From positions 128,001-192,000 of the forward strand of contig OY761556.1 of the NCBI GenBank assembly GCA_963664705.1: DNA of 64,000 nucleotides. Direction: 5' to 3'. Positions 9,830 to 63,070 of this stretch are shown here, one piece after another. The notes below the pieces were generated by a model. That model worked only from the letters and a program-made list of their open reading frames with translations. It did not search any database and was not told the origin of the DNA. This DNA comes from Acidobacteriota bacterium. GTDB taxonomy: Bacteria > Acidobacteriota > UBA6911. How positions within the stretch are numbered: the stretch's first letter is position 1; every line of letters starts with the position of its first letter. A program made the position numbers and the translations under genes.

Positions 9830-10248
9830 GCTGAAGGGGCGGCAGAATGTCGATCTTTCGCCCCTACCGGGGCTCTTTCTCGCGCGTATCTCTACCGGGG
9901 GTTCGCTTCGCTTCACCCCCGGCTACGATCTTTCGGCCCTCCGGGCCTGTTGCTTCAGTTGCGTCGCAGGGCCTAGCGCAAATAGTATGTGGCATTCGAC
10001 GTCTCGCCGGCAAAGAGCATAGCCGCTTTCACGAGTCTGATGCCGCCGTCCCGGCTAATGCCGCATATTTTTTGCCCAAGGAAGCCGGAAGCACGAGGCT
10101 TTCCAGCCCCAGCGGGGCGGCCAGAACGTAGCCGGGGGTGAGCGCTTTTTGCGAACCCCCGGATTGGATTAGTCCTGTATCAAGCCCTGACGGGGCGGCA
10201 GAAAAATGAAGAACTTCGTCGCCTGACTTACAAATAGTATGTAGATTA
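9830..10248. mobile_element. Two partial copies of the IS4-type MITE on either side of a REP-like host repeat (10000-10055)
   Basis: 9830-9996 and 10056-10203 are reverse-complement matches to the two halves of 12940-13236; TIR-like ends at 9996, 10056 and 10248. Confidence 0.7.
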
Positions 10249-11489: not shown

Positions 11490-12898
11490 TCTTTGTCCTC
11501 AGGGGTGGGTGAGCCCAGACGGGAGACGCTCTCGGGAGAGATCAGTCGCTCGAACTCTTCGACCGACAGGAATCCTCGTTCAATGGCAATATCCCGAATT
11601 CTTTTCCCCTCTGACTGAGCGATGGAGCCGATCTCCTGGGCCTTTTCATACCCAAGAACCTCCACCAGTGCTGTAAGAAGTGCCGTGGCCCCTTCCACAT
11701 GAGCCCGGCAACGTGTTTCATCCGCTTCAATGCCTGCAACGCAGTATTCGCGGAAGATACGGCAGGCGTGACGAAGAAGGTCCAGGCTGGAAAGCAGGGT
11801 GTCGGCAATCAGAGGCATGAAAGCGTTCAGCTCCAGGTTGCCCATGGCGCAGGCTTGCGTGAGCGCCTGATCATTCGCCATTACGAGCATAGATGCCTGG
11901 GAAACCGCTTCCGGGATGACCGGGTTTATTTTGCCGGGCATAATCGAGGAGCCCGCCTGGCGCTGTGGCAGCTTGATTTCGCCGAATCCCGCGTCCGGCC
12001 CGGAAGACGTCAGCCGAAGATCCGTAGCGGTCTTCAGCAGATTGGCTGCGCAGGCTTTCAAAATTCCACTGACTTCAACAAACACATCGGCATTTTGGGT
12101 GCATTCGACCAGGTTCTCGGCGCGCGCCAGCCCCAGGTGGGTTATTTCGCGCAGCCGGTCGACTACCTTGAAAATATACTGGCGCGGTGCCGAGAGGCCC
12201 GTCCCGATCGCCGTTCCGCCAAGATTCACGATGCGCAGGCGTTCCTCACATTTGTAAATGCGCCAGCGGTCCCGGGCAAACGCCTCCGAGTAAGCTCCCA
12301 TTTCGCGGCCCAGCGTTACGAGTACCGCATCCTGTAATTGTGTTCTCCCTACTTTGACGATTCTGGCGAATTGATGCTCCTTGCGCTGAAACTCCTCGAG
12401 CAGTTTGATCACCTCGGGCTGAAGCATTCGCAGAGACTGGATGGCTGCGACTTTCAGCGCGGTGGGGTAGGTATCGTTTGTAGACTGGTGGAGGTTGATG
12501 TCGTCAATCGGGTGAATGGTTCCATAATCGCCCAGGGGATTCCCCATAATTTGCAGCGCCCGATTGGCGAGAACCTCGTTGACGTTCATGTTTGTCGAAG
12601 TCCCGGCTCCCCCCTGGAGTGCATCCACGAAGATGTGGGAGTCCAGTTGCCCTTCCATCATTTCCTCGCAGGCCGCCGCGATGACACGGGCTTTCGTGGC
12701 GCTCCACCATCCCAACCCATGATTCGTTTGGGCGCAGGCGAGTTTGACCGCTCCGAAGGCGTGAATAAGGGCAGGGTTTACAGGGCGGAGCGCGAGAGGG
12801 AAATTTTCCAGAGCTCTGACAGTATGGATGCCATAAAGGGCGTCGGCCGGAACTTCGCGGGCTCCAAGTAAATCATGTTCGGTTCGGTACGCGGTCAT
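11486..12898 (-). CDS. aspA: Aspartate ammonia-lyase
   Basis: QGGAGTSTNMN, QSTNDTYPT, GRTQLQDA, GSSIMPGKINPVIPE; stop overlaps the hydF start. Confidence 0.93.
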   Translation of the reverse strand: MTAYRTEHDLLGAREVPADALYGIHTVRALENFPLALRPVNPALIHAFGAVKLACAQTNHGLGWWSATKARVIAAACEEMMEGQLDSHIFVDALQGGAGTSTNMNVNEVLANRALQIMGNPLGDYGTIHPIDDINLHQSTNDTYPTALKVAAIQSLRMLQPEVIKLLEEFQRKEHQFARIVKVGRTQLQDAVLVTLGREMGAYSEAFARDRWRIYKCEERLRIVNLGGTAIGTGLSAPRQYIFKVVDRLREITHLGLARAENLVECTQNADVFVEVSGILKACAANLLKTATDLRLTSSGPDAGFGEIKLPQRQAGSSIMPGKINPVIPEAVSQASMLVMANDQALTQACAMGNLELNAFMPLIADTLLSSLDLLRHACRIFREYCVAGIEADETRCRAHVEGATALLTALVEVLGYEKAQEIGSIAQSEGKRIRDIAIERGFLSVEEFERLISPESVSRLGSPTPEDKE

Positions 12899-12939
12899 AA
12901 GTTCAGCTTTATCGGAACGGGAAGTACAGCCGTCCCGGC

Positions 12940-13236
12940 TAATGCTACATACTATTTGCCCTAAGCCCTTCAACTCGAGTGAAGCAAAAGGCCCGGAGGG
13001 CCGAAAGAGCGTAGCCGGGGGTGAAGCGAAGCGAACCCCCGGTCAAGAGAGCAGGCATGGGAGCCCTGAAAGGGCGAAAGATCGGCATTCTGCCGCCCTT
13101 TCAGGGCTTGGTACCTGGTCTAATCCAATCCGGGGGTTCGCAAAAAGCGCTCACCCCCGGCTACGTTCTGGCCGCCCCTTCGGGGCTGAGGGGCATCGCG
13201 CTTCCGGCTTCCTTGGGCAAATAATATGCGGCATTA
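12940..13236. mobile_element. 297-bp IS4-type MITE with internal palindromic REP-like repeats and an 11-bp target duplication
   Basis: TIRs taatgctacatactatttgccc / gggcaaataatatgcggcatta; GCCGTCCCGGC duplicated at 12929-12939 and 13237-13247; no transposase. Confidence 0.85.
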
Positions 13237-13308
13237 GCCGTCCCGGCGGCATCAGTATTGTCGAAGCGGCTACGCCTTGGCCGGCGAGACGCAGCATCTT
13301 CCAATTTC

Positions 13309-14523
13309 TCACTGTACCGCGGCCGGTTCCACAGGCGCGGCCGGGGCTGTGCGGCTTTCGTCCTGGGATTTTGACTCAGCAGCCTTCGGCTCGGCATTGC
13401 GGCGCATGGTGACCACAAAGGCGCTGCCCACATCGGGCTGGCTTTTGGCGGTAATATCTCCTTCGTAGAGGGTCACGATTTTCTTGAGTGTGGACAATCC
13501 CAACCCGCTTCCCAGGATGCCTCGCGTTTTTTCGTTTTTGATCCTCGAGAAATCGGAGAACAGGCGTTTGCATTCTTCCGGGGACATCCCAATGCCGGTA
13601 TCCTCAACCTGGATCTTGATGTCATCCCCCAAAGATTGCAGGGTAACGGTGATGCGTCCGTTATCACGGTTGTATTTGATCGCGTTGGAGACAAGATTGT
13701 TATAAATCATGTCGATTTCGGTGCGATCCGCTTTCATTACCAGTTCGCCCGGAAGTTTCAACTCGATCTCGATATTGCGGCGCTGAGCTTCGGGCCTCAT
13801 ATTTTCGACTGCCGTGCGCGCGGCTTCCGCCAGATCCACATCGGTGACGTTCCTTTGACGCTGGCCTGATTCGATGGCGGTCAAATCCAGCAGATCCGAA
13901 ATGAGTTTGCGCATTCCTTCGATTCGAAGGAGGCTGCGGTCCACCATCCGGTCGTAGGCAGGCAGACTATCGCCCAGCGACCGTTCCCGGATCATCTGGA
14001 GATAGCCTTCAATGGCTGCAATGGGCGCTTTCATTTCATGCGCCAGAACCGAAATGAACTGGAAACGGACCTGGCGTTTTTCCTCCGCCAGCCGGCGCGC
14101 CTGCCGCTGCAGGATGAGGTGCCTGGCTGCTTTTCGAACGGCTCCCCGGAGTTCCTCCGGGGTGAACGGCTTTGCCAGAAAATCATAGGCGCCGCGCCGT
14201 GTAGCGGTTACGGCAGTGTCCAGGGATGCGTAGGCGGTGATCATGATAGTCAGCAGATCCAGCCCGCGCTTGCCTATCCCTTCCAGGAGATCCAGCCCTG
14301 CGGCATCCGGAAGTTTATGATCCAGGAGCAGAATGTCGGTTTTCCCTTCATTGAGGATTTCCTCGAGCTCCTTGCCGGTGGCTGCGGTACGGATTTCAAA
14401 CCGGACTTCGCCTCCGATATCCGGCAGGTGCAGCACCATATCCCGCAACGCACGATCGGCGCCGCGCCGCATTCCGTATTCATCATCCACAACCAGGATG
14501 TGCAGGGTTTCCACGTGAGCCAT
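13309..14523 (-). CDS. Hybrid sensor histidine kinase (REC-HisKA-HATPase)
   Basis: LVVDDE, LLDHKLP, KPF; AHEMKAP H-box; NLVSNAIKY, DTGIG, GSGLGL. Confidence 0.93.
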   Translation of the reverse strand: MAHVETLHILVVDDEYGMRRGADRALRDMVLHLPDIGGEVRFEIRTAATGKELEEILNEGKTDILLLDHKLPDAAGLDLLEGIGKRGLDLLTIMITAYASLDTAVTATRRGAYDFLAKPFTPEELRGAVRKAARHLILQRQARRLAEEKRQVRFQFISVLAHEMKAPIAAIEGYLQMIRERSLGDSLPAYDRMVDRSLLRIEGMRKLISDLLDLTAIESGQRQRNVTDVDLAEAARTAVENMRPEAQRRNIEIELKLPGELVMKADRTEIDMIYNNLVSNAIKYNRDNGRITVTLQSLGDDIKIQVEDTGIGMSPEECKRLFSDFSRIKNEKTRGILGSGLGLSTLKKIVTLYEGDITAKSQPDVGSAFVVTMRRNAEPKAAESKSQDESRTAPAAPVEPAAVQ

Positions 14524-14529
14524 CCGTTG

Positions 14530-14913
14530 CTACTTCGTTTCTTTCAGCAATTTGTCGACTTCGTCCGCGAGTACGCGCGGGTTGACCGGTTTTTCAATGA
14601 ACCGGCTTATCGGGAGCCATGTTTCATCCGGCTCGAAACTGTACCCGAGCTGCATTTCTTTGCGAATGCCGGTCAGCATAATCATCGGCATGGCGGAATA
14701 CATTTCGTGGAGGGCTCGGGCAAGGTCAAAACCCGCGGTCTTGTCTTCCATCATCACATCCAGCACCGCGAGGTCCGGCGTTTTGGCCTGGGCAGTTTGG
14801 CGAGCTTCAGCCGCAGAATAGGCCACCGCAACGTCATGGCCGCGCTGAGTCAGAACGGTTTTGTTCATCTCCACTAGATCCTGATCGTCATCAACCAAAA
14901 GAATGTATGCCAT
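14530..14913 (-). CDS. Single-domain response regulator (REC)
   Basis: ILLVDDD, LAVLDVMME, MLTG, EKPV. Confidence 0.9.
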   Translation of the reverse strand: MAYILLVDDDQDLVEMNKTVLTQRGHDVAVAYSAAEARQTAQAKTPDLAVLDVMMEDKTAGFDLARALHEMYSAMPMIMLTGIRKEMQLGYSFEPDETWLPISRFIEKPVNPRVLADEVDKLLKETK

Positions 14914-14938
14914 AACGCTCTCCTCGTATTTTGCGGTT

Positions 14939-16933
14939 TTACTCATCCAGCGCCTTGCGCGGGAGTTTTACAGTAAAGGTCGTACCTGTCGGGCCAACAG
15001 ACGGATCGTTATTGGATACGATGCTGAGGTCTCCCCGATGCATCTTTACAATGCCGTAGGTTACCGCCAGCCCAAGCCCGGTTCCCTTTCCAATCTGTTT
15101 CGTCGTGAAGAACGGTTCGCAGACCTTGCCGAGGTTCTCTTTGGAGATTCCAATGCCCGTATCCTTAACGGCGAACCAGATATGCGTCTCGTTCGACCCG
15201 ATGTGAATATTGATATTGCCTCCCTCGGGCATCGCATCGCAAGCATTACTGAATAAATTTGTGATGACTTGGTTGATTTGGTCCGGATCCAGGTCGACAA
15301 CCAGGTCCTCTGCTACCGGATCCACTTCCGCCGTCACGTTGGCAGGGAATGGATAGGATTTGACCGCATGCTGCAACAGAGCGCACAGGTCTACATTACG
15401 GAATACGGCCTTATTCTGTCGCGCAAAATGCAGAAGCCGCAGCACGATTTTCTTGCAGCGGTCGGCCTGCTCGACGATCATGTTGAGATCTTCGCGCCAT
15501 TCCGGGAACTGCTCTGCCTGTTCAAGGAGCATATGGGAATGCATCAGAACAATTCCGAGCGGGTTATTCACTTCGTGTGCCACGCCGGCCGCCAGCTGAC
15601 CCATGCTGGCCAGCCTTTCCGAATGCATCAAGGCTTCCTGCGTGTTGACGAGCTCCTGGTGGGAAACGGCCAGTTCTTTGACCGTGGTGCGCAGCTTGTC
15701 GATGGTATAGGGCAGGCACATTTCCGTTTCGGCCAGGTGGCGGTGAATGGCGATGGCATGCTGGACGCAGGAGTCATAGCCACAGGCGCCGCAATTCAGC
15801 TCATCTTCCGGTTTTTCCTTGCCCATCCGTGCCAGAATAGAGGTGACTTCTTCCCGGGATGGCTGGGAAACGCGCTGGTCATAGGTCCGGAAACCCCGGG
15901 AGAGGTCTGTATCGGCAAATTTTATTATGTCCTGTTCCCATTGTTCTTTGTGGGCTGCCCAATGCTTTTGCACAAACTGACGGACCATGCTGCGCCGTCG
16001 GAACAGAGCCGTGTTGGTCGTCATTCCCGCGCCCATGATGCACCCGTTGCAACACAGGACTTCCAGCAGCCGAACATTGAGGCTGTTGGAATCGACCGCC
16101 TGAATGGCGTCCGCAAAATTGGTGCGTCCGTCGGTGGCAAGCACCTGCCCGTCCATGAGATCTTCGCTGATGTGCGCGGCCTGCAGAAGCCCGCGGCTGA
16201 TTGGGAATAGTCCGCCGGGACCGCTCCAGGGCGGATCGAACTCACTGGGCTCCACCGATTCCGGTTTGATCCCGGAGTCTGAAAGCATCTGGCGAAGCTC
16301 GGAGAAGGTCAGGACGGCAGCGACTTCTCCTTCCAGGGCTTCACTCGCAGCCTCTCCTTTTTTGGCAATGCAGGGGCCGACAAATACAAACTTCAGGTCA
16401 GGGCCATGAATTCTTCGCAGAACACGCGCTGCCGCAACCATTGGGGAAACAATCGGGGCGAGACGGGGAACCAGGTCGGGATAGTATCGTTCTACATACC
16501 CGACCAGAGCCGGGCAAGTGGTGGCGATGAACTTGCCATCGGGATTTTCGTCCAGAAGTTCCCGGTATCTGCGGGCCACCAGATCGGCGGCGAACCCTAC
16601 TTCGTGGACATACTGAAAGCCCAGGGCTCGCACCATGCCGATGACTTTTTCGTATTCGACTTCCTCGAATTCTGCGGGGAAACTGGGCGCGATCAGGGCC
16701 GCGACCCGGCTGTCTCCTTCGAGCAGCCGGGCTACTTCCTGCGTTCCGTCCAGTACCTTTTTGGCACCCTGGCTGCAAACACGCGCACAGTTGCCACAGC
16801 CGATGCAGCGTTCGGGAATAACATGAGCCTGGCCATCGGAAATTCCTATGGCTTTGGCTGGGCATTCCCGGACACATGTGTAACAGACCCTACATCGTTC
16901 ATTAATCGTCTGTACAAAACATGCAACTTGCAT
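14939..16933 (-). CDS. Sensory (group C-type) [FeFe]-hydrogenase domain fused to a histidine kinase
   Basis: Two N-terminal 4Fe-4S motifs; H-domain motifs IAPS, TTCPA, GPCIAKKGE, EVLCCNGCIMGAG; FeS domain CGACGYDSC...C; HEVNNPL H-box; GKGTGLGL. Confidence 0.9.
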   Translation of the reverse strand: MQVACFVQTINERCRVCYTCVRECPAKAIGISDGQAHVIPERCIGCGNCARVCSQGAKKVLDGTQEVARLLEGDSRVAALIAPSFPAEFEEVEYEKVIGMVRALGFQYVHEVGFAADLVARRYRELLDENPDGKFIATTCPALVGYVERYYPDLVPRLAPIVSPMVAAARVLRRIHGPDLKFVFVGPCIAKKGEAASEALEGEVAAVLTFSELRQMLSDSGIKPESVEPSEFDPPWSGPGGLFPISRGLLQAAHISEDLMDGQVLATDGRTNFADAIQAVDSNSLNVRLLEVLCCNGCIMGAGMTTNTALFRRRSMVRQFVQKHWAAHKEQWEQDIIKFADTDLSRGFRTYDQRVSQPSREEVTSILARMGKEKPEDELNCGACGYDSCVQHAIAIHRHLAETEMCLPYTIDKLRTTVKELAVSHQELVNTQEALMHSERLASMGQLAAGVAHEVNNPLGIVLMHSHMLLEQAEQFPEWREDLNMIVEQADRCKKIVLRLLHFARQNKAVFRNVDLCALLQHAVKSYPFPANVTAEVDPVAEDLVVDLDPDQINQVITNLFSNACDAMPEGGNINIHIGSNETHIWFAVKDTGIGISKENLGKVCEPFFTTKQIGKGTGLGLAVTYGIVKMHRGDLSIVSNNDPSVGPTGTTFTVKLPRKALDE

Positions 16934-16960
16934 TCTGGCCTTTCCGGACTTATTCCGGAG

Positions 16961-17374
16961 TTACCCGTGGTGTTGGGAGGTCTCTCCGGATTCACCCAGC
17001 AGTCGCCGGACCTCGGCTTTCAACTGTTCCGGGCGAACTGGCTTATCCATCAACTTATCCACTTTGATCCAGGATTTGGCTTCTGCCTGTTGTGCTGCAA
17101 ACGACAGACCCGTTGCGCCGGCAACCGCCGTCAGCAGAATTACCGGCAATTCCGGGAACAGCTTCTTGAGCTGATAGCTGAGCACAAAACCGGAATCTTT
17201 CTCTTCCATCATCAAATCGAGAACCGCCAGGTCTGGTTTGGTTTTAAGAATCACTTCTTCCGCCATCGCGCGGCTCTCAGCGCTGATTACATCGTATCCT
17301 GCCGCTGCAAGAATCGCTGTTATCTGTTCGAGGATATCCACATCGTCATCAACTACCAGAATTTTCTTTTTCAC
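16961..17374 (-). CDS. Single-domain response regulator (REC), paralog of 14530-14913
   Basis: ILVVDDD, LAVLDLMME, DKPV; GTG start after GGAG. Confidence 0.88.
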   Translation of the reverse strand: MKKKILVVDDDVDILEQITAILAAAGYDVISAESRAMAEEVILKTKPDLAVLDLMMEEKDSGFVLSYQLKKLFPELPVILLTAVAGATGLSFAAQQAEAKSWIKVDKLMDKPVRPEQLKAEVRRLLGESGETSQHHG

Positions 17375-17634
17375 TTCGTAAGCTCCCTTACTCAAATCAT
17401 AACGAGCGACCGGCAACTGTCAGGACCCAGCCTTTGACGGGCTCCTTCCCACCGGGTTCGATGGGAAACACGCATTGTACAGCCCAAACGGGCTGTTTGC
17501 ATGTGGTTCCTTGCCGGCCGGTCGAACCGGGAATCCACCCCGGGCCAGGTTCGCGCCTCACCGGCAGGCGTGAAGCCGGTAAGGCCAGGCAATAGTGGCC
17601 CAGGGATGGATTCCTGCCCATTCCACAACAATCG

Positions 17635-19359
17635 CTATAAAACGTCTCTGCGATCGTAATGGGTATGCAGCAGGTTATGGCTTTTTTCGCCGAGCGGTTT
17701 TCCGAGAAATTCTTCATACAACCGCGCGACCCACGTGTTTTTATGGCTGACTCGCAGCTTATCGTTCTGGTCGATCTTGTACAGAGCCTGCATACGGGCT
17801 CGTGCTGCGTTGATGTTGGCGCCGATGGGCTGTCCGCCTCCGTTGATGCAGCCTCCGGGGCAGGTCATCACTTCGATGAAATGAAGATCTTTGCGCCCTG
17901 CCACGATCTCATCCATCAGCTTTCTGGCATTGCCCAGACCGCTTATAACCGCGGCTCCAACATCCAAGTCGCCGATTTTGGCCCGGATTTCCTTGGACCC
18001 CTTCATGCCCCGCAGCGGAACCATCTCTGGCTTGGGCAGTTCCTGTCCGGTCAGAAGGAAATACGCCGTACGGACAGCGGCTTCCATGACGCCACCGCTG
18101 GCGCCGAAGATCTTTCCGGCCGAGGATCTCTCCCCGAATGGCGTATCCGCCGCTTCCGGGGACATCGCGAGGAGGTCGACGCCGAAGGTTCTCAGCAGTT
18201 GTGCCAGTTCGCGCGTGGTTAACACATAGTCTACATCCGGGACATGACCGGGTGCCATCTCCGGCCGGCCGCATTCAAACTTTTTGGCCGTGCAGGGCAT
18301 GATCGAAACGCTGACGATTTTGCTGGGATCAATCTTCTCGCGTTCCGCGAAGTAGCTCTTGATGATTGCGCCCATCATCTGCTGCGGGCTCTTGCAAGTC
18401 GACAGGTTCGGGATCAGCTCAGGGTAGAACTGCTCGATGAACTTGATCCATCCCGGGGAACAGCTCGTAAACATCGGAAGCGTTCCGCCCGTTTGAATCC
18501 GGTGCGCCAGTTCGGATGCCTCTTCCATAATGGTCAAATCGGCGGTGAACGATGTGTCGAAAACACGATCGAATCCGATGCGCCGAAGTGCCGCCACCAT
18601 CTTTCCATCGGCATCCTGCTGTCCCGGCTCGGCTCCAAACTCCTCCGCCAGAGTCACCGAGACCGCGGGAGCATGCTGCACGACGACCAGTTTTTCCGGA
18701 TCCGCCAGCGCAGCCTTCACCTCTTCCAGGAAGGAGTGTTCGGTCAGAGCGCCGGTCGGGCAGCCGATGATGCACTGGCCGCAGTTGATACAGGTCGATA
18801 CGTTCAACCCCTGGTCGAAGGCAGTGCCGATATAGGCTTTGCTTCCGCGATTCACGAAATCGATGGAGCCGATTCCCTGAACTTCTTCGCAGATTCGAAC
18901 GCAGCGGCCGCAAAGGATGCACTTGTCCGGATCGCGGACAATGGCTCCGGCGACGTCCTTTTCACGGAAAGGACGTGCGCTGCGGCTGATGCGCTGGCGG
19001 ATTCCCATCGACTGGGACAGGTTCTGCAGATCGCATTTGCCGCTTCGCGCGCAATACAGGCAGTCATCCGGGTGGTTGCTCAACAGCAGCTCAACGATCG
19101 AGCGGCGCGCTTCCAGCACCTTTGCCGACCGTGTCTGGATTTTCATGCCCGGAGCTACGGGATACGAACACGCGGTAACGAAATTTCCAGCGCCTTCCAT
19201 TTCGACGATGCACATTCTGCAGGCACCGCTTGGGGGCAACCCTTCCAGGTGGCACAGGGTTGGAACATGAATTCCTTCCCGTTTCAAAGCCGAGAGGATC
19301 GTTTCCCCTTCTTTGGCCTCAATGGTCCGGCCATCCACTATCATTTCAATCATATTCAC
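17635..19359 (-). CDS. hydA: Group A [FeFe]-hydrogenase catalytic subunit (HydA/HndD-like)
   Basis: 2Fe-2S domain, His-ligated 4Fe-4S, two further 4Fe-4S; H-cluster motifs TSCSPGW, MPCTAKKFE, EVMTCPGGCINGGGQP; C-terminal LLHTHY. Confidence 0.95.
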   Translation of the reverse strand: MNMIEMIVDGRTIEAKEGETILSALKREGIHVPTLCHLEGLPPSGACRMCIVEMEGAGNFVTACSYPVAPGMKIQTRSAKVLEARRSIVELLLSNHPDDCLYCARSGKCDLQNLSQSMGIRQRISRSARPFREKDVAGAIVRDPDKCILCGRCVRICEEVQGIGSIDFVNRGSKAYIGTAFDQGLNVSTCINCGQCIIGCPTGALTEHSFLEEVKAALADPEKLVVVQHAPAVSVTLAEEFGAEPGQQDADGKMVAALRRIGFDRVFDTSFTADLTIMEEASELAHRIQTGGTLPMFTSCSPGWIKFIEQFYPELIPNLSTCKSPQQMMGAIIKSYFAEREKIDPSKIVSVSIMPCTAKKFECGRPEMAPGHVPDVDYVLTTRELAQLLRTFGVDLLAMSPEAADTPFGERSSAGKIFGASGGVMEAAVRTAYFLLTGQELPKPEMVPLRGMKGSKEIRAKIGDLDVGAAVISGLGNARKLMDEIVAGRKDLHFIEVMTCPGGCINGGGQPIGANINAARARMQALYKIDQNDKLRVSHKNTWVARLYEEFLGKPLGEKSHNLLHTHYDRRDVL

Positions 19360-19373
19360 CTCAGTCCATCTGT

Positions 19374-22300
19374 CTAATGTGGTTGCGTAAATTCCAGATC
19401 ACATCTCGCACAACGCCGCGCTTCCGTCAGGACATCCTGTTCGGACGGGCACAACTCCACTTCGTGGAAACACCCCTTCCGCTGTACTACGGGCAGCAGA
19501 GGCACTTCCAGCCGAACCGCGTTGCTGTTCTCGTCATCTTCCGATGTCACAGGTTCCACATAGACGGACGGGAGCTTCACTTTCGGCAGGACCTTCATCA
19601 GCTTGCCGGCGATATAGCGATCGATCATTGTGGCCGCCTGCTTTCCGGCTGCCACGGCTTCGATCACCGTATTCGGTCCGCTCACGACATCGCCGGCTGC
19701 GAAAACTCCGGCTCTGTTGGTGGCAAACGATTCGCTGTTGATGCTGACCGTACCCCAGGATGTTTTGCCGAGGGCTTCCATTCCTGCCGTATCCGGTTCT
19801 TCACTGATCGCTACAACCAGCGTATCCAGTTCCGCATCGAATTCCGATCCCTTGACAGGGACGGGTCGACGGCGGCCGGAAGCATCCGGTGCGCCGAGTT
19901 CATTGCGGAGGAATCGAACTCCGGTCAACTTGCCGTCTTTGCTGTTCACGGCCACGGGCGTGACCAGTTCTTCGATCTTAATTCCTTCGGCGAGGCCGGC
20001 TTCCACTTCTTCCTTATAAGCCGGCATTTCCTGACGTGTGCGCCGGTAGAAGACCGTGACGCTCTCGACTCCGGGCTGTCGGAAGGCGACGCGAGCCGCA
20101 TCCATGGCAGAGTTGCCGCCGCCAAGGATACCTACGCGTCCTTTGGCCATCGATACGTTCTTGAGATTATATGCCTTCAGGAACTTGATTCCCGGGATGA
20201 CGCCTTCGACGTCTTCACCCGGAACATCCAGCTTCTTGCTGGCATGCGATCCGGCCGCAACAAACACCGCTTTGTAGCCGTCCTCGAAAAGCTTGTCGAT
20301 CGAGAAATCGCGACCCAGTGCCTGTTCATAGCGAACATCAATATTGTTATTCAGCAGGGAGGTGATTTCCCGGTTCAGGACTTCTCTGGGCAACCGGTAT
20401 TCCGGTATCGCGGCTGTCAACATGCCGCCGGCTCTATCTTCGCGCTCGAACAGCGTAATTTTGTGCCCCATCAAGGACAGCGAATTGGCTGCGGCAAGCC
20501 CTGTCGGGCCGGCGCCGATGACGGCGATCTTCGCGGAGTCCGGACGTGCCGGAATTGCCGGAGGTTTGTTGCTCGGAATGACATGGTCGACAACGTAGCG
20601 CTTGAGCGTACGGATGGCGATCGGCTGTCCTCCCGTGGCTCCTGCCCGGCATACTGCCTCACAGGGGTGATGGCAGACTCGGGCACAGGCGGAGGGGAAC
20701 GGATTTGCGTCGCGGATTACCTTGTAGGCGTCTTCGTACTCGCCGCGAGCGATGTGAGCCACATAGCGCCACACTTCCGTCCCAACCGGGCATCCGGTCT
20801 GGCAGGGGGCTCCTACCAGTTCCTTGCACGATCCGGCCGGGCAGCGGCGCTCGAACACGTGCGCTTCATACTCATCGCGGAACCATTTCAGGGTGCTGAG
20901 GACCGGGTTCGGAGCTGACTGGCCAAGGCCGCACAGGCTGGTGGACTTGATCATCTCGCCCAACTGCTGCAACTGCATAATGCCCTGGACGCGCAACAAG
21001 GCATCCAGCTCGTCTTCCTTGTGGCGAGGTTTGGTCAGCGCTTCAAGAATTTCGAGCATGCGTCTCGTACCTTCACGGCACGGGATGCATTTACCGCAGC
21101 TCTCATTCTGAATGAATTCCATAAAGTACTTGGCGAAATCCACCATGCAGGTCGATTCATCAAGTACGACCAGCCCGCCGGATCCCATGATAGTTCCGAA
21201 CTGTTTCAGTTCTTCATAATCGATCGGAATGTCCAGGTGTGCTTCAGGAACACATCCGCCCGAGGGGCCGCCCGTCTGGACCGCCTTGCAGGTTTTGTTG
21301 TTCGGAATTCCGCCGGCGATTTCCTGGACGACTTCGCGCAACGTGGTTCCCATCGGGATTTCCACGAGGCCCGTGCGCCGAACCATTCCGGAGAGCGCGA
21401 AAACTTTGGTTCCCTTGCTTCCCTTGGTCCCCATGCTGGAGTACCACTCTGCGCCGCGGTCGATGATGAGCGGTATGTTTGCCAGGGTTTCAACATTGTT
21501 GATGACGGTCGGTTTGCCAAACAAGCCGCTGACTGCTGGGAATGGCGGCCGCGGGCGCGGCATTCCGCGCTTGCCTTCAATCGAGTGAATCAGGGCCGTT
21601 TCTTCACCGCAGACAAAGGCTCCGGCACCCATCTTCAGCTTGATCTGCAGGTCGATACCGCTGCCCAGAATATCGTAACCAATCAATCCGCAGGCTTGCG
21701 CCTGTGCGAAGGCTTCGTTGAGATGCTGGATAGCCAGCGGATATTCAGCGCGGATGTAGATGTAAGCCTTGGTAGCGCCGATGGCATAGGCGGCAATCAG
21801 CATGCCTTCAATCAGCCTATGCGGATCGCTTTCGGCTACCGCGCGATCCATGAACGCGCCCGGGTCGCCTTCATCCGCATTGCAGATCAGGTATTTTTGG
21901 TCCGCCGCTGTTGCCCGTGCGAACTTCCATTTCTTTCCGGTCGGGAACCCGCCACCACCGCGGCCCCGCAGTCCGCTGAATTCCACCAGGTCGCACACCG
22001 CTTCAGGCGTCATCGTACGCAATACGCGGGCAATCGAGGAGTATCCACCGTGGGCGATATATTCTGAGATATTTTTAGGATCAATAATGCCGCTTGTTGC
22101 CAGCACCACACGGACCTGCCGAGACAGGAAAGGATGTTCATCAAGATAAGGAACTCCAGTCCATATCTTTCCCGATTTTGCACGATATTGCCCGAGGGTT
22201 TCGTCCGCCGGGACCTTCTTGTTGACGAGAACGCTGTCAAGCAGCCCAGCGGCTTTGTCTGCAGTAATGTTCTTGAAGCTGACGCGTGAACGGCCGGGGA

Positions 22301-22637
22301 GTTGAATGTCAACGATCGGCTCGTCCGAGCACATGCCGTTGCACCCGACTTCGACAATCTGGGCATCAATCTTTTTCTCTGCGACAAATTCCTTGATGGC
22401 GACGAGAGTTTTGGCTGCTCCCGCACCGAGACCGCATGTGCCGGCACCGACAAAAATGACCGGTTTTTCCACTGTCTCTCTGCGCAGCGAGGCCAGCAGC
22501 GCATCCATCTGTTCCTTGCCCTGCGCGGCTGCGCTTACAAAGGGCTCGGCCTTGAGATCCGCAAGGAGATCTTCGGAAACGCCGCCGAAGTTCACCCAGC
22601 AGGAGTTGCCCTTTTCTGTTTTTGCTTTATTTGCCAT
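19374..22637 (-). CDS. hydB: NuoF/HydB-like FMN subunit fused to a GltD/NfnB-like FAD/NAD(P) oxidoreductase domain
   Basis: Thioredoxin-like 2Fe-2S N-domain; GLRGRGGGGF, NADEGDPGAFMDR, GAFVCGEET, ESCGKCIPCREG; then PCQTGCP, CARVCHHPCEAVC, IGAGPTG, GGGNSAMD, YRR, AGD. Confidence 0.9.
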   Translation of the reverse strand: MANKAKTEKGNSCWVNFGGVSEDLLADLKAEPFVSAAAQGKEQMDALLASLRRETVEKPVIFVGAGTCGLGAGAAKTLVAIKEFVAEKKIDAQIVEVGCNGMCSDEPIVDIQLPGRSRVSFKNITADKAAGLLDSVLVNKKVPADETLGQYRAKSGKIWTGVPYLDEHPFLSRQVRVVLATSGIIDPKNISEYIAHGGYSSIARVLRTMTPEAVCDLVEFSGLRGRGGGGFPTGKKWKFARATAADQKYLICNADEGDPGAFMDRAVAESDPHRLIEGMLIAAYAIGATKAYIYIRAEYPLAIQHLNEAFAQAQACGLIGYDILGSGIDLQIKLKMGAGAFVCGEETALIHSIEGKRGMPRPRPPFPAVSGLFGKPTVINNVETLANIPLIIDRGAEWYSSMGTKGSKGTKVFALSGMVRRTGLVEIPMGTTLREVVQEIAGGIPNNKTCKAVQTGGPSGGCVPEAHLDIPIDYEELKQFGTIMGSGGLVVLDESTCMVDFAKYFMEFIQNESCGKCIPCREGTRRMLEILEALTKPRHKEDELDALLRVQGIMQLQQLGEMIKSTSLCGLGQSAPNPVLSTLKWFRDEYEAHVFERRCPAGSCKELVGAPCQTGCPVGTEVWRYVAHIARGEYEDAYKVIRDANPFPSACARVCHHPCEAVCRAGATGGQPIAIRTLKRYVVDHVIPSNKPPAIPARPDSAKIAVIGAGPTGLAAANSLSLMGHKITLFEREDRAGGMLTAAIPEYRLPREVLNREITSLLNNNIDVRYEQALGRDFSIDKLFEDGYKAVFVAAGSHASKKLDVPGEDVEGVIPGIKFLKAYNLKNVSMAKGRVGILGGGNSAMDAARVAFRQPGVESVTVFYRRTRQEMPAYKEEVEAGLAEGIKIEELVTPVAVNSKDGKLTGVRFLRNELGAPDASGRRRPVPVKGSEFDAELDTLVVAISEEPDTAGMEALGKTSWGTVSINSESFATNRAGVFAAGDVVSGPNTVIEAVAAGKQAATMIDRYIAGKLMKVLPKVKLPSVYVEPVTSEDDENSNAVRLEVPLLPVVQRKGCFHEVELCPSEQDVLTEARRCARCDLEFTQPH

Positions 22638-23100
22638 TTTTGGACTCCGTTTCCCGGCACTCTTGAATAATTTGGACCAGCTTTTGAGGCGTCACCTTTG
22701 CGTAAAACTCGCCGTTCAGGTTCATCACAGGTGAAAGTCCGCAAGCTCCCATGCACGCGACTGTCTCCAGACTGAAGAGACGATCCCGCGATGTTTGACC
22801 CGGCTTCAGTTTCAGCATTTTTTCGGCCATATCGAGAACGCGATTGGATCCTTTGACATGGCAGGCAGTCCCACGGCAGACCATAAAATGATATTTGCCC
22901 TTGGGTTGAAACCGGAATTGATTGTAAAAGGTTGCAACTCCGAAGATTTTTGTGGTCGGCAGGTTGAGGTGTTTGCTGATACGAATGACTGCTTCGCGTG
23001 ACAAATAGCCTTCTATTTCCTGCACTTCTTGGAGGATAGGAATCAGGGCATCTCGGCCAGCCCTGGGGTGTTTCTGCAGAATGGCATCCACAGCATTCAT
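22627..23100 (-). CDS. hydC: NuoE/HydC 2Fe-2S subunit
   Basis: VATFY, CRGTACHVKG, CMGACGLSP. Confidence 0.93.
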   Translation of the reverse strand: MNAVDAILQKHPRAGRDALIPILQEVQEIEGYLSREAVIRISKHLNLPTTKIFGVATFYNQFRFQPKGKYHFMVCRGTACHVKGSNRVLDMAEKMLKLKPGQTSRDRLFSLETVACMGACGLSPVMNLNGEFYAKVTPQKLVQIIQECRETESKNGK

Positions 23101-23768
23101 GAATTGCTCTCCTTATAAACAGACAACATCTGCCTGTCCGACGACCGCTCGGACTGGCGCGCAAAGTAGGCCACCTTGTCCATGGACATGGCCAAATCAA
23201 TATCCTCGACGTAAACGTCGGGGGGGACATGAAGAGGAGTCCTCGCAAAATTAAGAAATCCGCGGACTCCAGCGCCTACAAAAGTATCGGCGATGAACTG
23301 AGCTTCTTTATCGGGTACGGCAATAATTCCTACGCTAATGCCAAGCTCCCGGATCACACTATCCGCTTTTTCGATCGAATAGCACGGGCAGCCTTGAAAC
23401 ATGCGGTCATACTTCTCAGGGTTGGTTTCAAATGACGCGGCAATCCGGAGCGTCGGACGGCGTCCCATGAAGTACTTGAGCAGGGCGCGACCTATATTCC
23501 CGACTCCTGCAATGGCCGCCTTTTGCTCCGTTGCAGAGAAGAGAAACGCTTCGATATGCTCCCGCAGCCGAAGCACGTCATACCCGCGGGCAGGGGTCCC
23601 GGAATAGCCAAGAACCATAAGGTCTCGGCGTACCTGGGCTGGCGTGACATGGGATTTTGCTGCCAGGAAATGTGAATAGACGTGAGTGAGTCCCTCGGCG
23701 GCGAATTCCCCTAAATTACGCCAATACAACGTTAAACGGCCAACTGTTCGATGTGGAACGATCTTCAA
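23097..23768 (-). CDS. rex: Redox-sensing transcriptional repressor Rex
   Basis: RLTLY, QVRRDL...GY winged helix; GVGNIGRAL Rossmann motif; FLNFA; TTG start. Confidence 0.92.
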   Translation of the reverse strand: MKIVPHRTVGRLTLYWRNLGEFAAEGLTHVYSHFLAAKSHVTPAQVRRDLMVLGYSGTPARGYDVLRLREHIEAFLFSATEQKAAIAGVGNIGRALLKYFMGRRPTLRIAASFETNPEKYDRMFQGCPCYSIEKADSVIRELGISVGIIAVPDKEAQFIADTFVGAGVRGFLNFARTPLHVPPDVYVEDIDLAMSMDKVAYFARQSERSSDRQMLSVYKESNS

Positions 23769-23814: not shown

Positions 23815-23933
23815 TTAATAGCAAGCGAAAAATAAATTAATTTTATAGGTAGGGCGGATTCCAGTAGATTTTGGAATAGGTGGTTACCGCAGGGAGCGTG
23901 AGCGGGACGGTAAATGCCGCATAATTTTTGAAG

Positions 23934-23968
23934 GATTCCAGATTCCAGATTCCAAATTCCAAATTCCA
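23934..23968. repeat. 7-bp tandem repeat (RATTCCA)x5
   Basis: gattcca three times followed by aattcca twice. Confidence 0.85.
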
Positions 23969-24140
23969 GACACGCTGTCCCAGCTAATGCCGCATGCTGA
24001 TTGTAGCTTGATTAACGAGATGAAGCTGGGGGCTCAATGGGAACGCGGGGCCTCGCCGGCAAGGTCATGGACTGCTTGCATGGCGCTGATGCCGCTGGGA
24101 TGGCGGGGGGGGGGGGGGGGACAGACTTTATTTTGGGGAG

Positions 24141-24219
24141 AAATAAAACAGCGGAAGGCTGGAGTCGCCCAGAGCCCGTAGACTCTGCCAGCCTTCCGCT
24201 AATCCAATGGCTAGAGATG
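24141..24219 (-). ncRNA. Candidate sRNA A (sibling of 56588-56658)
   Basis: TGn-TAGCTT -10-like element, then TCTCTAGCCATTGGA, a 13-bp GC stem (24150-24162 with 24188-24200) and a U-rich tail; no gene follows directly. Confidence 0.5.
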
Positions 24220-24291
24220 TATTTAAGCTAACATGGAATATCGCGGAATAAAAGTAATAATTAGTTAAAATTGGTAATAAAGAGATAGGCA

Positions 24292-26715: not shown

Positions 26716-26941
26716 TGTCTCTCTTTCGCTAAACCGTTAAATTAGAATATTCTTATTGCCCGCAATCCACGTCAGGAGGTGGCTTCAGTCTGGGCAGGCC
26801 CCTCTGGAGAAAATTCTCCCAAAGAGCCACAAGATACGCCCATAATGTACCAGATTGTCTTGAAAATATGAAATTCACAATCCGTTTGTAATTGTATGGC
26901 GGGACATGCTAAAAATTGGGAAATGGCTGGAGGATTCGTTA

Positions 26942-39555: not shown

Positions 39556-39600
39556 TTGACAAATAGTAATGTTTTGTCATTATTTGTAATTCTTTTGTGG
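39556..39600 (+). promoter_or_regulatory. Sigma70-like promoter overlapped by 10-bp phased repeats
   Basis: TTGACA at 39556; aaataGTAAT / gttttGTCAT / tatttGTAAT at 39561-39590. Confidence 0.55.
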
Positions 39601-53795: not shown

Positions 53796-54539
53796 CTATG
53801 CTCCTCCTGTCTTCGCTGCCGGTTTTGGAGCTCCGCCGGGAGGTCCAAACTGCTTCGGGGCGGGAGCAAGATTAATGTCGTAGCCGTTGATATCCTGTTG
53901 CGAGGGAGCTTCAGCAACAAGCTTGAGAGCTTTCGCCACGCATGTCTCCACGCAGGCCTGTTTTCCGCCCGGACCGCCTTTCTGACTCCAGAAGGGCGCA
54001 TCGGTGCATAGATCGCATTTGGTCGATTTTCTCTTTGCGGCGTTCCATACAGTGCGGTGCGGCCTCTGCGGACAAGATTGAATACAGCGCTGGCAGCCGA
54101 CGCATTTCGTCTGGTCGATCCTTCTGACATTGCCGTTGGCTGTGTCCACATGACAGGCTCCGGTGGGGCAGTTCTGGACACACAAGGGAGACACGCACTG
54201 GCGGCAGACAGACAGTACAACGTCATAGGGGTACTTCGTAAAGGATGGCGCGTCGCGAATGATCTGAATGCGCGACAAGGTTGGATTGGCTTCTCCTTCA
54301 TGTGTCATGGAGCAGGCGAACATGCAACTCTGGCAGCCAAGGCACAGCCGGCTGTCGTAAACGATATATCCGGTCGAAGCAGGATAGGAAGCCTTGGCCG
54401 TCGCCTGCGTCAGGGCAGCCGCGGATTCCGGGGCGCACACCGCCAAAGCCCCGGCCGCTATGGCAGCTCCGCCGCCGGCCAGAAAATCACGTCGTAGTAC
54501 TTTTTTTTCTTTGCTTTCGGCTTTTTGGGATTCAGCCAT
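53796..54539 (-). CDS. Tat-exported 4x[4Fe-4S] protein (YdhY-like), probable partner of the AOR-family enzyme
   Basis: LRRDFL Tat motif; four ferredoxin Cys motifs; 2 bp from the AOR-like start. Confidence 0.88.
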   Translation of the reverse strand: MAESQKAESKEKKVLRRDFLAGGGAAIAAGALAVCAPESAAALTQATAKASYPASTGYIVYDSRLCLGCQSCMFACSMTHEGEANPTLSRIQIIRDAPSFTKYPYDVVLSVCRQCVSPLCVQNCPTGACHVDTANGNVRRIDQTKCVGCQRCIQSCPQRPHRTVWNAAKRKSTKCDLCTDAPFWSQKGGPGGKQACVETCVAKALKLVAEAPSQQDINGYDINLAPAPKQFGPPGGAPKPAAKTGGA

Positions 54540-54840
54540 AGAGCAGTCTCCTAACTAATATATGTTATTCGCGAGTTTGGGTGTTTCAGAACCAGTCGCA
54601 GCCTCAAACAGGGGGCCGGTGTATTCGAATTGCCAGACTCTTCTATCAAACCTCTCAACGGAGTTGGTTTATTGTCCCATATTATTACAAAAAGAAGGAA
54701 AAGCGACTAAATACTGATGCCGATCATGCGATTTGGAGTGCGAATACCGGACCGCAACGAGTGTTTTATTGCGGAGGTTGATATATAATTCCGTGCGTTC
54801 CAGAACGATAGGCGGGCCAATTTGCGGGGAATCTCATTAC

Positions 54841-55755
54841 ATGAATAAGGAGATGCTCACAACGGATGATCTAGCGGAATATCTGAGCATTCACAAAAAC
54901 CAGATATATCGCCTGATCAAGGAAAAGCGACTCCCCGCCACGCGGGTAACGGGTAAGTGGCTCTTTCCGAAACGATTGGTCGATGAGTGGGTTATTGCCA
55001 GTGCCAAAGAGAGCGTCCAGGGAGAGCCAAAGAAAGATCCTCCGGAGAACCGGATTGTCATTGCGGGCAGCAATGATATTGCCCTGGAGATGCTGGCCAA
55101 AAAGGTACACGCGCGGTTTCCCCATTTCAATGTTTCGCTTTCCAATGTGGGAAGCCTTGCCGGATTGAATGCGCTGCGACGAGGGACCTGTCATATCGCG
55201 GCCTCTCACCTGCTGGATACAGAGACCGGGGAGTACAACAATTCCCACGTTCGGAAGTACTTCCCCGACCTCAACGTCAGGATCATCAATCTTGCGCACC
55301 GCGAACAGGGACTGCTCATGAAAAAGGGGAACCCGTTGCGCGTTGCCAAACTGGAAGACCTAGCATCTCGGAAGGGCACGTTCATTAATCGGCAGGACGG
55401 ATCTGGAACCAGGGTGCTGCTGGATTTTCTGCTGAAGGAACATCATGTCGATCCGTCGGAAATTCCCGGCTATGACACCGTGGCCTATACGCATCTGGAG
55501 GTGGGGGTAGCGATTCTCCAGGGATCCGCTCAGATCGGAATGGGAATTCGTGCGGTTGCACAGTTGCTTGGCTTAGATTTCATTCCTCTTGCCAACGAGA
55601 GATTCGATCTGATCGTACCAACCCAATGGCACGATGCCGAACCTGTCCGTGCTTTATGCCGGTCCCTTGCACTCGATGATTTCAAAACAACCGTTTCCTG
55701 CATGGGAGGATACGAAACCTACGATACCGGCAGGGTTATGTACGAGAAGGGATGA
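54841..55755 (+). CDS. Excisionase-type HTH plus PBP-like (molybdate/tungstate-binding) transcriptional regulator
   Basis: LTTDDLAEYL...YRLI...LPATRVTGKWLF; GSND, GSLAGL, AASHL, REQGL, NRQDGSGTR. Confidence 0.88.
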   Translation: MNKEMLTTDDLAEYLSIHKNQIYRLIKEKRLPATRVTGKWLFPKRLVDEWVIASAKESVQGEPKKDPPENRIVIAGSNDIALEMLAKKVHARFPHFNVSLSNVGSLAGLNALRRGTCHIAASHLLDTETGEYNNSHVRKYFPDLNVRIINLAHREQGLLMKKGNPLRVAKLEDLASRKGTFINRQDGSGTRVLLDFLLKEHHVDPSEIPGYDTVAYTHLEVGVAILQGSAQIGMGIRAVAQLLGLDFIPLANERFDLIVPTQWHDAEPVRALCRSLALDDFKTTVSCMGGYETYDTGRVMYEKG

Positions 55756-56395: not shown

Positions 56396-56587
56396 CCGGG
56401 CGTCTGCACCCTGTTCCTCAAGCCTCTTTCCCGTTTATTTTAACAGCCAGGTGATTGCGCCTTTTTTGCTCCGTGGGTGACATGCCGCCCCAAGGATGCT
56501 GCGGCGGCATTCTTGGCGTTAATGCCGTAATAATCCAAAAAATAACAAAATATTACTAGAAAGAACAAATTATGCTATAATGCAGCT

Positions 56588-56658
56588 ATTCTCTAAGCCA
56601 TGGAGATGGAGAGGGCCGGGATTAAGCTTAGGCTTTATTTCCCGGCCCTCTATTTTTT
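56588..56658 (+). ncRNA. Candidate sRNA B (sibling of 24141-24219)
   Basis: Perfect extended -10 TGcTATAAT at 56573-56581; TCTCTAAGCCATGGA; 12-bp stem 56610-56621 with 56640-56651; then atttttt; no ORF downstream on this strand. Confidence 0.55.
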
Positions 56659-61464: not shown

Positions 61465-62895
61465 TTATCTTCCGCGCTTCACCAGCTTAATCGTCTGAAG
61501 CGTCGTATACTCCTCGAGCCCGTAGCGGCCGAATTCCACGCCGATTCCGGATTCCTTGACTCCGCCAAAAGGGGCGTTGGGCTGAATGGCCGCGTGATCG
61601 TTAATCCAGGCAGTTCCGCACTCCAGCCGGCCGGCGAGCTCTTTTGCCTTGTTTAAATCACTGGACCAAATGGAGCCGCCTAATCCGTAGCAGCTTCGAT
61701 TGGCTCTTTGAATCGCATCCTCGACATCGGAATATTTGATGATCGGGAGAATAGGGCCAAATTGCTCTTCATCGACAAGCCTTGAGCCGTCTTCAATGTC
61801 TGCAACCAGCGTGATCGGAAAAAAATATCCCGGGCCTTGCATTGGTTCACCGCCACAGAGGAATCGTGCCCCCGCTCTCCTGGAGTCCTCGGCCAGCGCG
61901 CAGACGAAATCCAGTTGATCTTTGTTTTGGAGCGGGCCGAAATCCACATCTTCCAGAAGGCCATTGCCGACCTTCACCGTCCCGGCAATCGATGCCATTT
62001 CCCTGCCTATGGCTTCGTATATGCTTTCATGAACATACAGCCTCTTCAGACAGGCACAGGTTTGCCCGCTGTTGTGAAATCCCACTCTGAAAAGCTCTGG
62101 TGCAACCTCTTTCGGATCCACATCCGGAAGCACAATACCGGCATCGTTTCCTCCCAGTTCCAGCGTGCATCGTTTGAGGCTCGCTGCCCCATTTTTCATG
62201 ATGCTCTTCCCGGTCGGCGTTGATCCCGTGAAGACGATCTTTCTGATCCCGGGATGGCTGGCCATCGCGCTTCCAATGCCGTTTTCGGCGGTCAGGATGT
62301 TCAGCACTCCCGGCGGTAGGATTTCATTGGCAAGTTCCACAAATCGCAGTGTTGCCAATGGAGTGAGGGAGGAAGGTTTGATGATGACTGTGTTGCCGGA
62401 TCGGATCGCCGGCATCATGTGCCAGATCGCGATCATGAGGGGCCAGTTCCATGGAGGAATGGAGCCCACAACGCCAATGGGTTTGCGATAGGCCTCTACG
62501 CGGGCTTCTGCATTGTCTTGAATAAGGTCCACCGGGAGCGCCAATTCGGCCGTTGCCCGGGTCCAGCCGACCGCGCCTCCCAACTCCATGCCGGCTCCGA
62601 TTCCCTGGTACCCTCTCAGCGGCTTTCCACTCTCCCGGGTCAACAATTCCATCAACTCCGCACTGTTTTTTTCGAGAATATCCGCCAAAGCGTTCACTTT
62701 CGCCTTGCGCGTGTTGTCTTCCTCTGACCTCCAGGATGCAAAAGCGTTTTCCGCGGCGTCGACCGCCTGGTCCAGGTGAGTGCTTTCTGCTGCCGGGCAT
62801 TGGGCAAAGACTTCGCCCGTAGCCGGATTGCGCACTCCAAACGTTCTCTGTGTGGATATCTTTTTGCCGTTGATGATCAGTCCGTATGTACTCAT
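61465..62895 (-). CDS. NAD(P)-dependent aldehyde dehydrogenase
   Basis: PWNWP, KPS, FTGSTPTG, LELGGND, SGQTCAC, EEQFGP, PFGGVKESG. Confidence 0.95.
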   Translation of the reverse strand: MSTYGLIINGKKISTQRTFGVRNPATGEVFAQCPAAESTHLDQAVDAAENAFASWRSEEDNTRKAKVNALADILEKNSAELMELLTRESGKPLRGYQGIGAGMELGGAVGWTRATAELALPVDLIQDNAEARVEAYRKPIGVVGSIPPWNWPLMIAIWHMMPAIRSGNTVIIKPSSLTPLATLRFVELANEILPPGVLNILTAENGIGSAMASHPGIRKIVFTGSTPTGKSIMKNGAASLKRCTLELGGNDAGIVLPDVDPKEVAPELFRVGFHNSGQTCACLKRLYVHESIYEAIGREMASIAGTVKVGNGLLEDVDFGPLQNKDQLDFVCALAEDSRRAGARFLCGGEPMQGPGYFFPITLVADIEDGSRLVDEEQFGPILPIIKYSDVEDAIQRANRSCYGLGGSIWSSDLNKAKELAGRLECGTAWINDHAAIQPNAPFGGVKESGIGVEFGRYGLEEYTTLQTIKLVKRGR

Positions 62896-63020
62896 AACCG
62901 GTTTCTCCGCATTTCAGGATAGGGGCTTTGTCTTGGCGCCGAATGGCCAGACAGTCGTGATTGCAAGCTGAAGACGAAAGCGCATTTGCGATACCGCCTC
63001 ACCAGGGAACTTCTGTAAAA

Positions 63021-63070
63021 TGGACAAAATATAATAAAAAATAACAAAAGCAATTAAAATATAACAATAG
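63021..63070. promoter_or_regulatory. Five 10-bp phased repeats (ATAACAAAA-like) between divergent genes
   Basis: tggacaaaat / ataataaaaa / ataacaaaag / caattaaaat / ataacaatag. Confidence 0.5.

Follow-up and report, generated by a model that had tools for sequence, protein, structure and literature searches.

A candidate tungsten-responsive small RNA family predicted to pair with aldehyde:ferredoxin oxidoreductase start codons in an uncultured Acidobacteria genus

Introduction

Metal-sparing small RNAs (sRNAs) are established for iron. For tungsten, regulation of the aldehyde:ferredoxin oxidoreductases (AORs) by TaoR in Desulfovibrio, as Rajeev and colleagues reportedly described it in 2019, consists only of direct transcriptional control of aor and tup, with TaoR repressing tup and activating aor in tungsten-replete cells. 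The best known iron-sparing RNA, RyhB, is presented in the relevant section of PMC11672702 as a short RNA, controlled by a metal-sensing regulator, that acts in trans by pairing at the translation starts of metal-using enzymes, and IsrR of Staphylococcus aureus, in part of PMC9410917, as a Fur-controlled iron-sparing sRNA. TaoR itself figures in passages of PMC11980592 and PMC12327845 as a tungstate-responsive regulator of AOR. RNA-level control tied to molybdenum and tungsten cofactor genes is represented by the Moco/Tuco riboswitch (in a passage of PMC11672702). A search of the open-access literature for small RNAs together with tungsten or molybdenum, with subscription journals outside its range, returned no RNA of the kind described here; passages from the UBA6911 genome preprint (10.1101/2021.04.09.439258) do not mention tungsten, and passages from two WOR reviews (PMC12096430, PMC13328260) contain nothing on regulation.

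The window analysed here, i.e. a stretch of 64,000 nt from an Acidobacteriota genome (G000), carries two sites that we interpret as sRNA genes. Like RyhB of E. coli and IsrR, as far as the passages cited above describe them, the RNA is short and predicted to act in trans under metal control and to pair at translation starts; conserved pairing to the translation starts of metalloenzyme mRNAs, a feature of the metal-sparing class, was found computationally. It differs from both in having no Rfam sequence or structure match, a direct-repeat operator in place of a Fur box, targets of the AOR/WOR family, an anti-AUG seed and tungsten as the predicted metal. The RNA likely works like RyhB, as a predicted tungsten counterpart, yet is not a member of the RyhB family. 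With the TaoR regulon, the locus shares an HTH_17 plus PBP_like regulator beside aor and tup genes (compare part of PMC11980592), predicted tungstate-dependent regulation (compare part of PMC12327845) and, in this genus, a common upstream motif at aor, tup and other W/Mo genes; here, in contrast, the main AOR targets are without the repeat motif, and the RNA would relay the signal. The Moco/Tuco riboswitch is a cis-acting ligand sensor in leaders, whereas this RNA has its own predicted promoter and often a convergent gene.

The two sites

Both sites show the layout that an earlier note on this DNA had ascribed to them, i.e. repeats, TG plus a -10 element, 7-8 nt, a shared stretch, a 12-13-bp stem and a U-rich tail (Table 1). 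The ATWAC repeats it described hold for the 10-bp spacing and for most repeats: site inspection places ATAAC at 56542, ATTAC at 56552 and a degenerate third repeat at 56532 in copy 1, while copy 2 (minus strand) has ATTAC at 24278 and 24258 and a deviating TTAAC at 24268. At site 1, TATAAT is followed after 8 nt by TCTCTAAGCCATGGA (56590-56604, plus strand) and a hairpin at 56610-56651 with a 12-bp stem (56610-21/56640-51) and a U tail at 56653-58; at site 2, on the minus strand, TAGCTT is followed after 7 nt by TCTCTAGCCATTGGA (24217-24203), a 13-bp stem (24200-188/24162-150) and a tail reaching 24141. The stem of copy 2 (24200-24150) holds an inner hairpin and a conserved GGCGACU bulge (24169-24163); copy 1 is the variant without the GCGAC bulge, and its seed is predicted to fold into a 6-bp hairpin.

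Table 1. Positions of the RNA copies, repeat motifs and associated genes in the window; the ends of the copy 1 RNA are inferred from promoter spacing and tail
Feature	Position	Strand	Remarks
Copy 2, predicted sRNA, common type	24141..24218	-	~78 nt; single-stranded seed 24217-24203
Copy 2, extended -10, TG-t-TAGCTT	24225..24233	-	TAGCTT 24230-25
Copy 2, three 10-bp direct repeats	24250..24279	-	Likely operator
Repeat motif over -10 region, TonB-receptor/ABC uptake operon starting 39610	39562..39591	-	33.7 bits, second in genome
Start of 4Fe-4S gene, in-window AOR operon	54534..54543	-	10-bp match (one G-U) to copy 1 seed
TaoR-like regulator gene	54841..55755	+	Excisionase-type HTH_17 + PBP_like; candidate controller
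Copy 1, three direct repeats, 10-bp spacing	56531..56560	+	Likely operator of a TaoR-type regulator; last repeat overlaps -35 position
Copy 1, extended -10, TG-c-TATAAT	56573..56581	+	TG 56573-4, TATAAT 56576-81
Copy 1, predicted sRNA	56588..56658	+	~71 nt; seed 56590-56604, hairpin, U tail
Repeat motif upstream of aldehyde dehydrogenase gene 61465-62895 (-)	63020..63049	+	20.6 bits; Pfam Aldedh

The shared 14-15-mer occurs at two places in the whole 6.9-Mb genome, i.e. at these two sites, whose folding z-scores are -5.1 and -5.4, with none of 200 shuffles equally stable. Since a simple consensus scanner scored neither a promoter nor a terminator at site 1 or site 2, the promoter and terminator labels used here derive from conservation within the family. 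Adjacent to copy 2 lie a long C run just past its end (around 24104-24121, minus strand) and five head-to-tail GGAAT(T/C)T heptamers upstream of rex (around 23930-23965).

The RNA family

Judged by sequence conservation, the two sites are copies of a real, undescribed, genus-wide RNA gene family of an uncultured Acidobacteria genus, in whose members the three 10-bp repeats and the extended -10 are followed by the seed UCUCUAGCCAU(U)GGA and by a hairpin that covaries. DNA and pattern searches yielded 25 copies, on which a covariance model (R1) was built; the model detected 26 copies in 23 of 30 genus genomes, i.e. the 25 training sequences and a single new copy, which also bears the repeats. 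The 107 non-genus genomes of the class gave no match, nor did a sample of 150 from across the phylum, an absence that holds for the genomes searched with a genus-trained model and strict filters. A looser seed search of five RNA-negative genomes gave 16 matches, none of them an operator-bearing copy. One unpublished genome (G034) enters the tallies only. In metagenomes, a pattern that used no promoter information retrieved 31 loci, some duplicating genus genomes, and all 29 with enough upstream DNA scored 13.8-45.7 bits for the repeats upstream, compared with -32 to -2.5 bits in downstream controls (n=27).

On a plain, unfitted MAFFT alignment, two-sided changes were seen at 15 of the 19 hairpin pairs, rising to 17 of 19 (93.9 % paired; 0/500 shuffles) on the model-fitted alignment, and covariation in slid controls was far below that of the hairpin. 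The two hairpins had been taken for unrelated, with divergent terminators; they are in fact homologous, the site 1 arm GAGGGCCGG being the family majority and the GG/CC pairs invariant across the family. The seed is nearly invariant and single-stranded in the common type. Just 22 of 50 members have a tail window with at least five U, and many may end other than at a classical terminator. An Rfam search at the gathering score and at E values up to 5 gave no relevant match at either site, riboswitch models included, and the family is undescribed. For Hfq, the genome has one family match barely above the cut-off (27.6 bits) and another below it.

The next gene is co-oriented in 24 of 48 family loci, often being of the uptake or substitute type, and lies on the opposite strand in the other 24, with varied neighbours. 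A leader reading was rejected on the latter ground, in agreement with the earlier note. An antisense-peptide reading was likewise rejected, because the frame from the ATG of the seed spans 2-23 codons and is unconserved in 54 loci, and in the same loci no conserved small toxic ORF, as expected of a type I toxin-antitoxin system, was found opposite the RNA.

Predicted targets

A conserved AOR gene, here called AOR1, has a start codon to which the seed is antisense. Among the 5311 genes of G000, called by a simple script with approximate starts, CCAATGGCT occurs at a single start, that of AOR1 (G000:C1:622047), which sits between moeA genes and a TaoR paralogue and is a canonical AOR by full-length alignment to solved AORs (E 1.8e-75). 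The complementary site is kept in 24 of 25 AOR1 orthologues, untranslated and synonymous positions included. In a tally over 24 orthologues that are 66-100 % identical, position -3 is C in 21, -2 is C in all 24 and -1 is A in 22, and the third base of Ala2 is T in 23, compared with 0.48 as the median over 24 further four-fold sites; G002 supplies the 25th orthologue, with an intact site. None of 25 paralogue starts has the AOR1 site. The lone Ala2 GCG belongs to G001, a 98 % complete genome in which the RNA was not detected.

Changes on the two sides also correspond in individual genomes, i.e. G044 has a matched double change (RNA UUGAA, target UUCAA) and G018 lacks one base in both its only detected RNA copy and its target, while G007 has the target as in G018 but a bulged A in its RNA. 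Cognate duplexes scored -19.7 kcal/mol versus -18.8 for permuted ones (1/20000), in genomes that are kin, with few independent events. Of the 30 genomes, 22 have RNA and AOR1, one the RNA only, three AOR1 only and four neither; in G020 (97 % complete), AOR1 is lost, while the seed is perfect and a second target is retained. AOR1 orthologues were not found in 36 non-genus genomes, so that the comparison stays within the genus. For copy 1, AOR1 is a poor partner, at rank 314.

The second target class is a 4Fe-4S gene that opens another AOR-family operon (G000:C1:5769079); here, ATGGCT[AG]GAG is present at 25 of 27 starts (two read from context), though residues 3-4 vary; this class explains the invariant 5' UCUCU of the RNA. 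The motif stands at only three of the 5311 G000 starts, two of them AOR-operon genes. Since the site is also kept in three genomes in which the RNA was not detected (G001, G012 and G041), this class argues less strongly for pairing. Of the 445 Met-Ala starts, the top 10 for copy 2 include three AOR-operon genes (p 0.002), a result reached by one of 200 flank-shuffled seeds, and the top 10 for copy 1 include two (p 0.03). Over all starts, ranks 1 and 2 for copy 1 also go to AOR-operon genes, and this copy favours 3010561 and 5769079.

Taken together, the genus-wide conservation, the covariation and the conserved complementary sites argue with good confidence for what the earlier note had proposed, i.e. 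sibling trans-acting sRNAs, here predicted to pair at AOR start codons and to repress AOR translation. The earlier note named neither these targets nor the candidate regulator.

Within the window, the start of the 4Fe-4S gene of the AOR operon ranks 82 of 5311, with a net pairing of only -3.8 kcal/mol; GCT follows the start in 17 of 23 RNA-bearing and three of seven RNA-lacking genomes, the paralogues being mixed, and the gene is a weak candidate target. Further AOR-family starts have lineage-specific matches in G003, G014 and G018. The seed matches checked also fell on two unrelated gene starts and several non-starts, and a duplex scan widened to -60..+40 gave a noisy result. An XdhC/CoxI cofactor-insertion gene (G000:C1:206764) ranks 4 of 5311 for the copy 2 seed, and its G018 orthologue has a different start. 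Seed-complementary 11-12-mers lie in the leader of the gene at 26942 (window positions around 26922-26933, plus strand), whose single available homologue is without the match, and in that of the TupA-like gene of G022 (L025). In G005, the start of a gene that is presumably nikR has a perfect 10-base seed match (L239, G005:C174), which is not seen in G000.

A more elaborate version, a two-seed tungsten-sparing RNA with the 5' arm on the AUG of some AOR paralogues and the GCGAC bulge on the Shine-Dalgarno-to-start spacer of others, would sort the roughly 24 AOR-family genes by tungsten supply; we consider it doubtful. The bulge-versus-spacer predictions for AOR clade 2, fixed before checking, held in two of seven genomes (G015, G024) and failed in five, and the permutation test (p 0.024) was driven by one clade, which leaves the second seed as a weak lead only. 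Clade 2 was not found in G000, and of the ~680-aa AOR clade the N-terminal part alone aligned to solved structures. Upstream of clade 2 (L159-L168, L210-L218), another conserved promoter motif, in which TTCCG...CGGAA arms flank TTGACG, suggests a further regulator.

Promoter repeats and candidate regulator

Among 50 distinct family promoters, TG is present in 45 and TAnnnT in 49, and the distance from the repeats, which abut the -35, to the -10 is 22-23 nt in 39, shrinking to 18-19 nt in copy 1 and G018. Since 28 of the 50 combine a 4/6 -35 with an extended -10, an activator is not needed there. The conserved element consists of three 10-bp direct repeats, and no Fur box, judged by the familiar form of that box, was recognised.

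A repeat matrix built from 24 promoter sequences of genomes other than G000 gave 13 matches above 14 bits in G000. The top seven lie at the two RNAs, a TonB receptor, two Mo-hydroxylase loci, an AOR operon and an aldehyde dehydrogenase, while the remaining six look unrelated; copy 1 is the best match genome-wide (36.4 bits) and copy 2 the fifth (23.7 bits). The repeats recur at the same position in homologues of the uptake operon starting at 39610, and in relatives the motif stands at TonB receptors, aldehyde dehydrogenase and 4Fe-4S/AOR operons; it also precedes the gene for TaoR in G021 and that for a TupA-like protein in G022. The link to W/Mo metabolism drawn in the earlier note is supported by this shared repeat and by the complementary AOR starts. 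Some AOR-family operons bear the repeats over their own -10 region; both target classes are without the motif, the best score being 6.2 bits over 23 upstream regions of the one and 4.5 bits over 26 of the other. At uptake promoters the repeats cover the -10, implying repression, and at RNA promoters they run in the opposite orientation and abut the -35, a position compatible with activation as well as with repression of a promoter that needs no activator.

Besides the regulator gene in the window, a second TaoR paralogue (G000:C1:624985-625899) adjoins AOR1. Full-length TaoR homologues were found in 21 of 24 other genus genomes and in none of 16 genomes outside the genus; the RNA is likewise absent from the three genus genomes without a match, all incomplete (71-87 %), while in G001 and G013 TaoR is present and the RNA was not detected. 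In G001 and G020, taoR lies directly 5' of tupABC-like genes. By co-location and shared distribution only, a TaoR-type tungstate regulator is the likely candidate controller of the RNA. A second metal regulator of G000 is an XRE-PBP protein (G000:C1:1140997).

Proposed mechanism and alternatives

We propose, with a probability of roughly 0.55, that the sRNA blocks AOR translation at tungsten shortage under TaoR-type control. Tungstate-loaded TaoR on the repeats would hold off the RNA, the uptake genes and tungsten-free substitutes, i.e. Mo-hydroxylases and aldehyde dehydrogenase; at low tungsten, all of these would be switched on. The 70-80-nt RNA, probably transcribed from its own promoter, would pair across -3..+10 of its targets and block ribosome loading, and by shutting off AOR synthesis would spare tungsten, pterin and Fe-S. 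Considering that the predicted regulon comprises uptake genes and tungsten-free aldehyde enzymes, silencing of AORs by the RNA in response to low tungsten is favoured, and the metal-sparing direction is the most likely reading.

The same RNA and targets would also fit the reverse logic, in which ample tungstate or molybdate makes the regulator an activator of the RNA, so that some AOR paralogues are turned off and others favoured. In 39 of 50 promoters the repeats keep a fixed spacing, with centres close to -40/-50/-60, their orientation is opposite to that of the uptake sites, TaoR binding to DNA in vitro is reported to be tungstate-independent (in part of PMC12327845), and one AOR clade (YdhV) prefers Mo (in part of PMC12096430). 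Nevertheless, we regard this as possible but unlikely, because the activator is dispensable at 28 of the 50 promoters, the fixed spacing breaks down in copy 1 and G018, the co-oriented next genes are often of the uptake or substitute type, and AOR1 belongs to the canonical AORs, a group described as obligately W-dependent (same part of PMC12096430).

Improbable, in our view, is control of the base-pairing RNA by another factor or signal (aldehyde, redox or another metal), with repeats that are not TaoR sites: the A/T-rich repeats could partly be UP elements, and G001 and G013 have TaoR without a detected RNA, but the repeat matches cluster at W/Mo genes, the three genomes without TaoR also lack the RNA, taoR adjoins tupABC-like genes, and excisionase-type proteins recognise direct repeats spaced by one helix turn (as stated in a passage of PMC7498355). 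A cis element (leader, attenuator or riboswitch), or an ordinary terminator preceded by a chance look-alike, is very improbable despite the weak U tails and the co-oriented half of the loci, given the opposite-strand genes and varied neighbours in the other half, the lack of an Rfam riboswitch match, and an invariant single-stranded seed with conserved complements elsewhere that a terminator leaves unexplained.

If the sparing mechanism at tungsten shortage is true, the metal-sparing sRNA principle would reach tungsten, the heaviest biological metal, the TaoR family would gain a post-transcriptional arm, and a little-studied Acidobacteriota lineage would have an sRNA with a covariation-supported target. 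It would also hint at how tungsten is rationed where one genome carries 24 AOR-family genes.

Genomic context

The window encodes TonB receptors, FecCD-type ABC transporters, two AOR genes, the HTH_17/PBP_like regulator, tupABC and aldehyde dehydrogenase. The two sites had been said to bracket an island; the GC content is flat (0.51-0.59), no integrase was found among the 53 window ORFs scanned, and the tungsten-related cluster extends past site 1. Therefore, the RNAs lie inside this cluster and not around an island.

Positions 24346-49370 hold two TonB receptors, three FecCD-type ABC sets, a GEGP diheme protein, methyltransferases, a radical SAM enzyme and DUF364, with one operon under the repeat motif; the same genes lie beside the RNA in relatives, and the set may serve to import chelated tungsten or molybdenum. 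On the other side of copy 2, the minus strand (10287-23768) encodes Rex, followed by a bifurcating-type [FeFe] hydrogenase, response regulators, a hydrogenase-like sensor kinase and hydF. An Acido-Lenti-1 RNA (Rfam RF01687, 38.6 bits) is located at 9895-9948 (plus strand).

The genome as a whole holds an unusually large set of W/Mo enzymes, i.e. 24 AOR-family genes above the Pfam cut-off and 27 MoCoBD_1 matches (about 24 genes). A molybdopterin oxidoreductase match with one in-frame TGA (G000:C1:4400667-4401947, minus strand) is likely a selenocysteine formate dehydrogenase.
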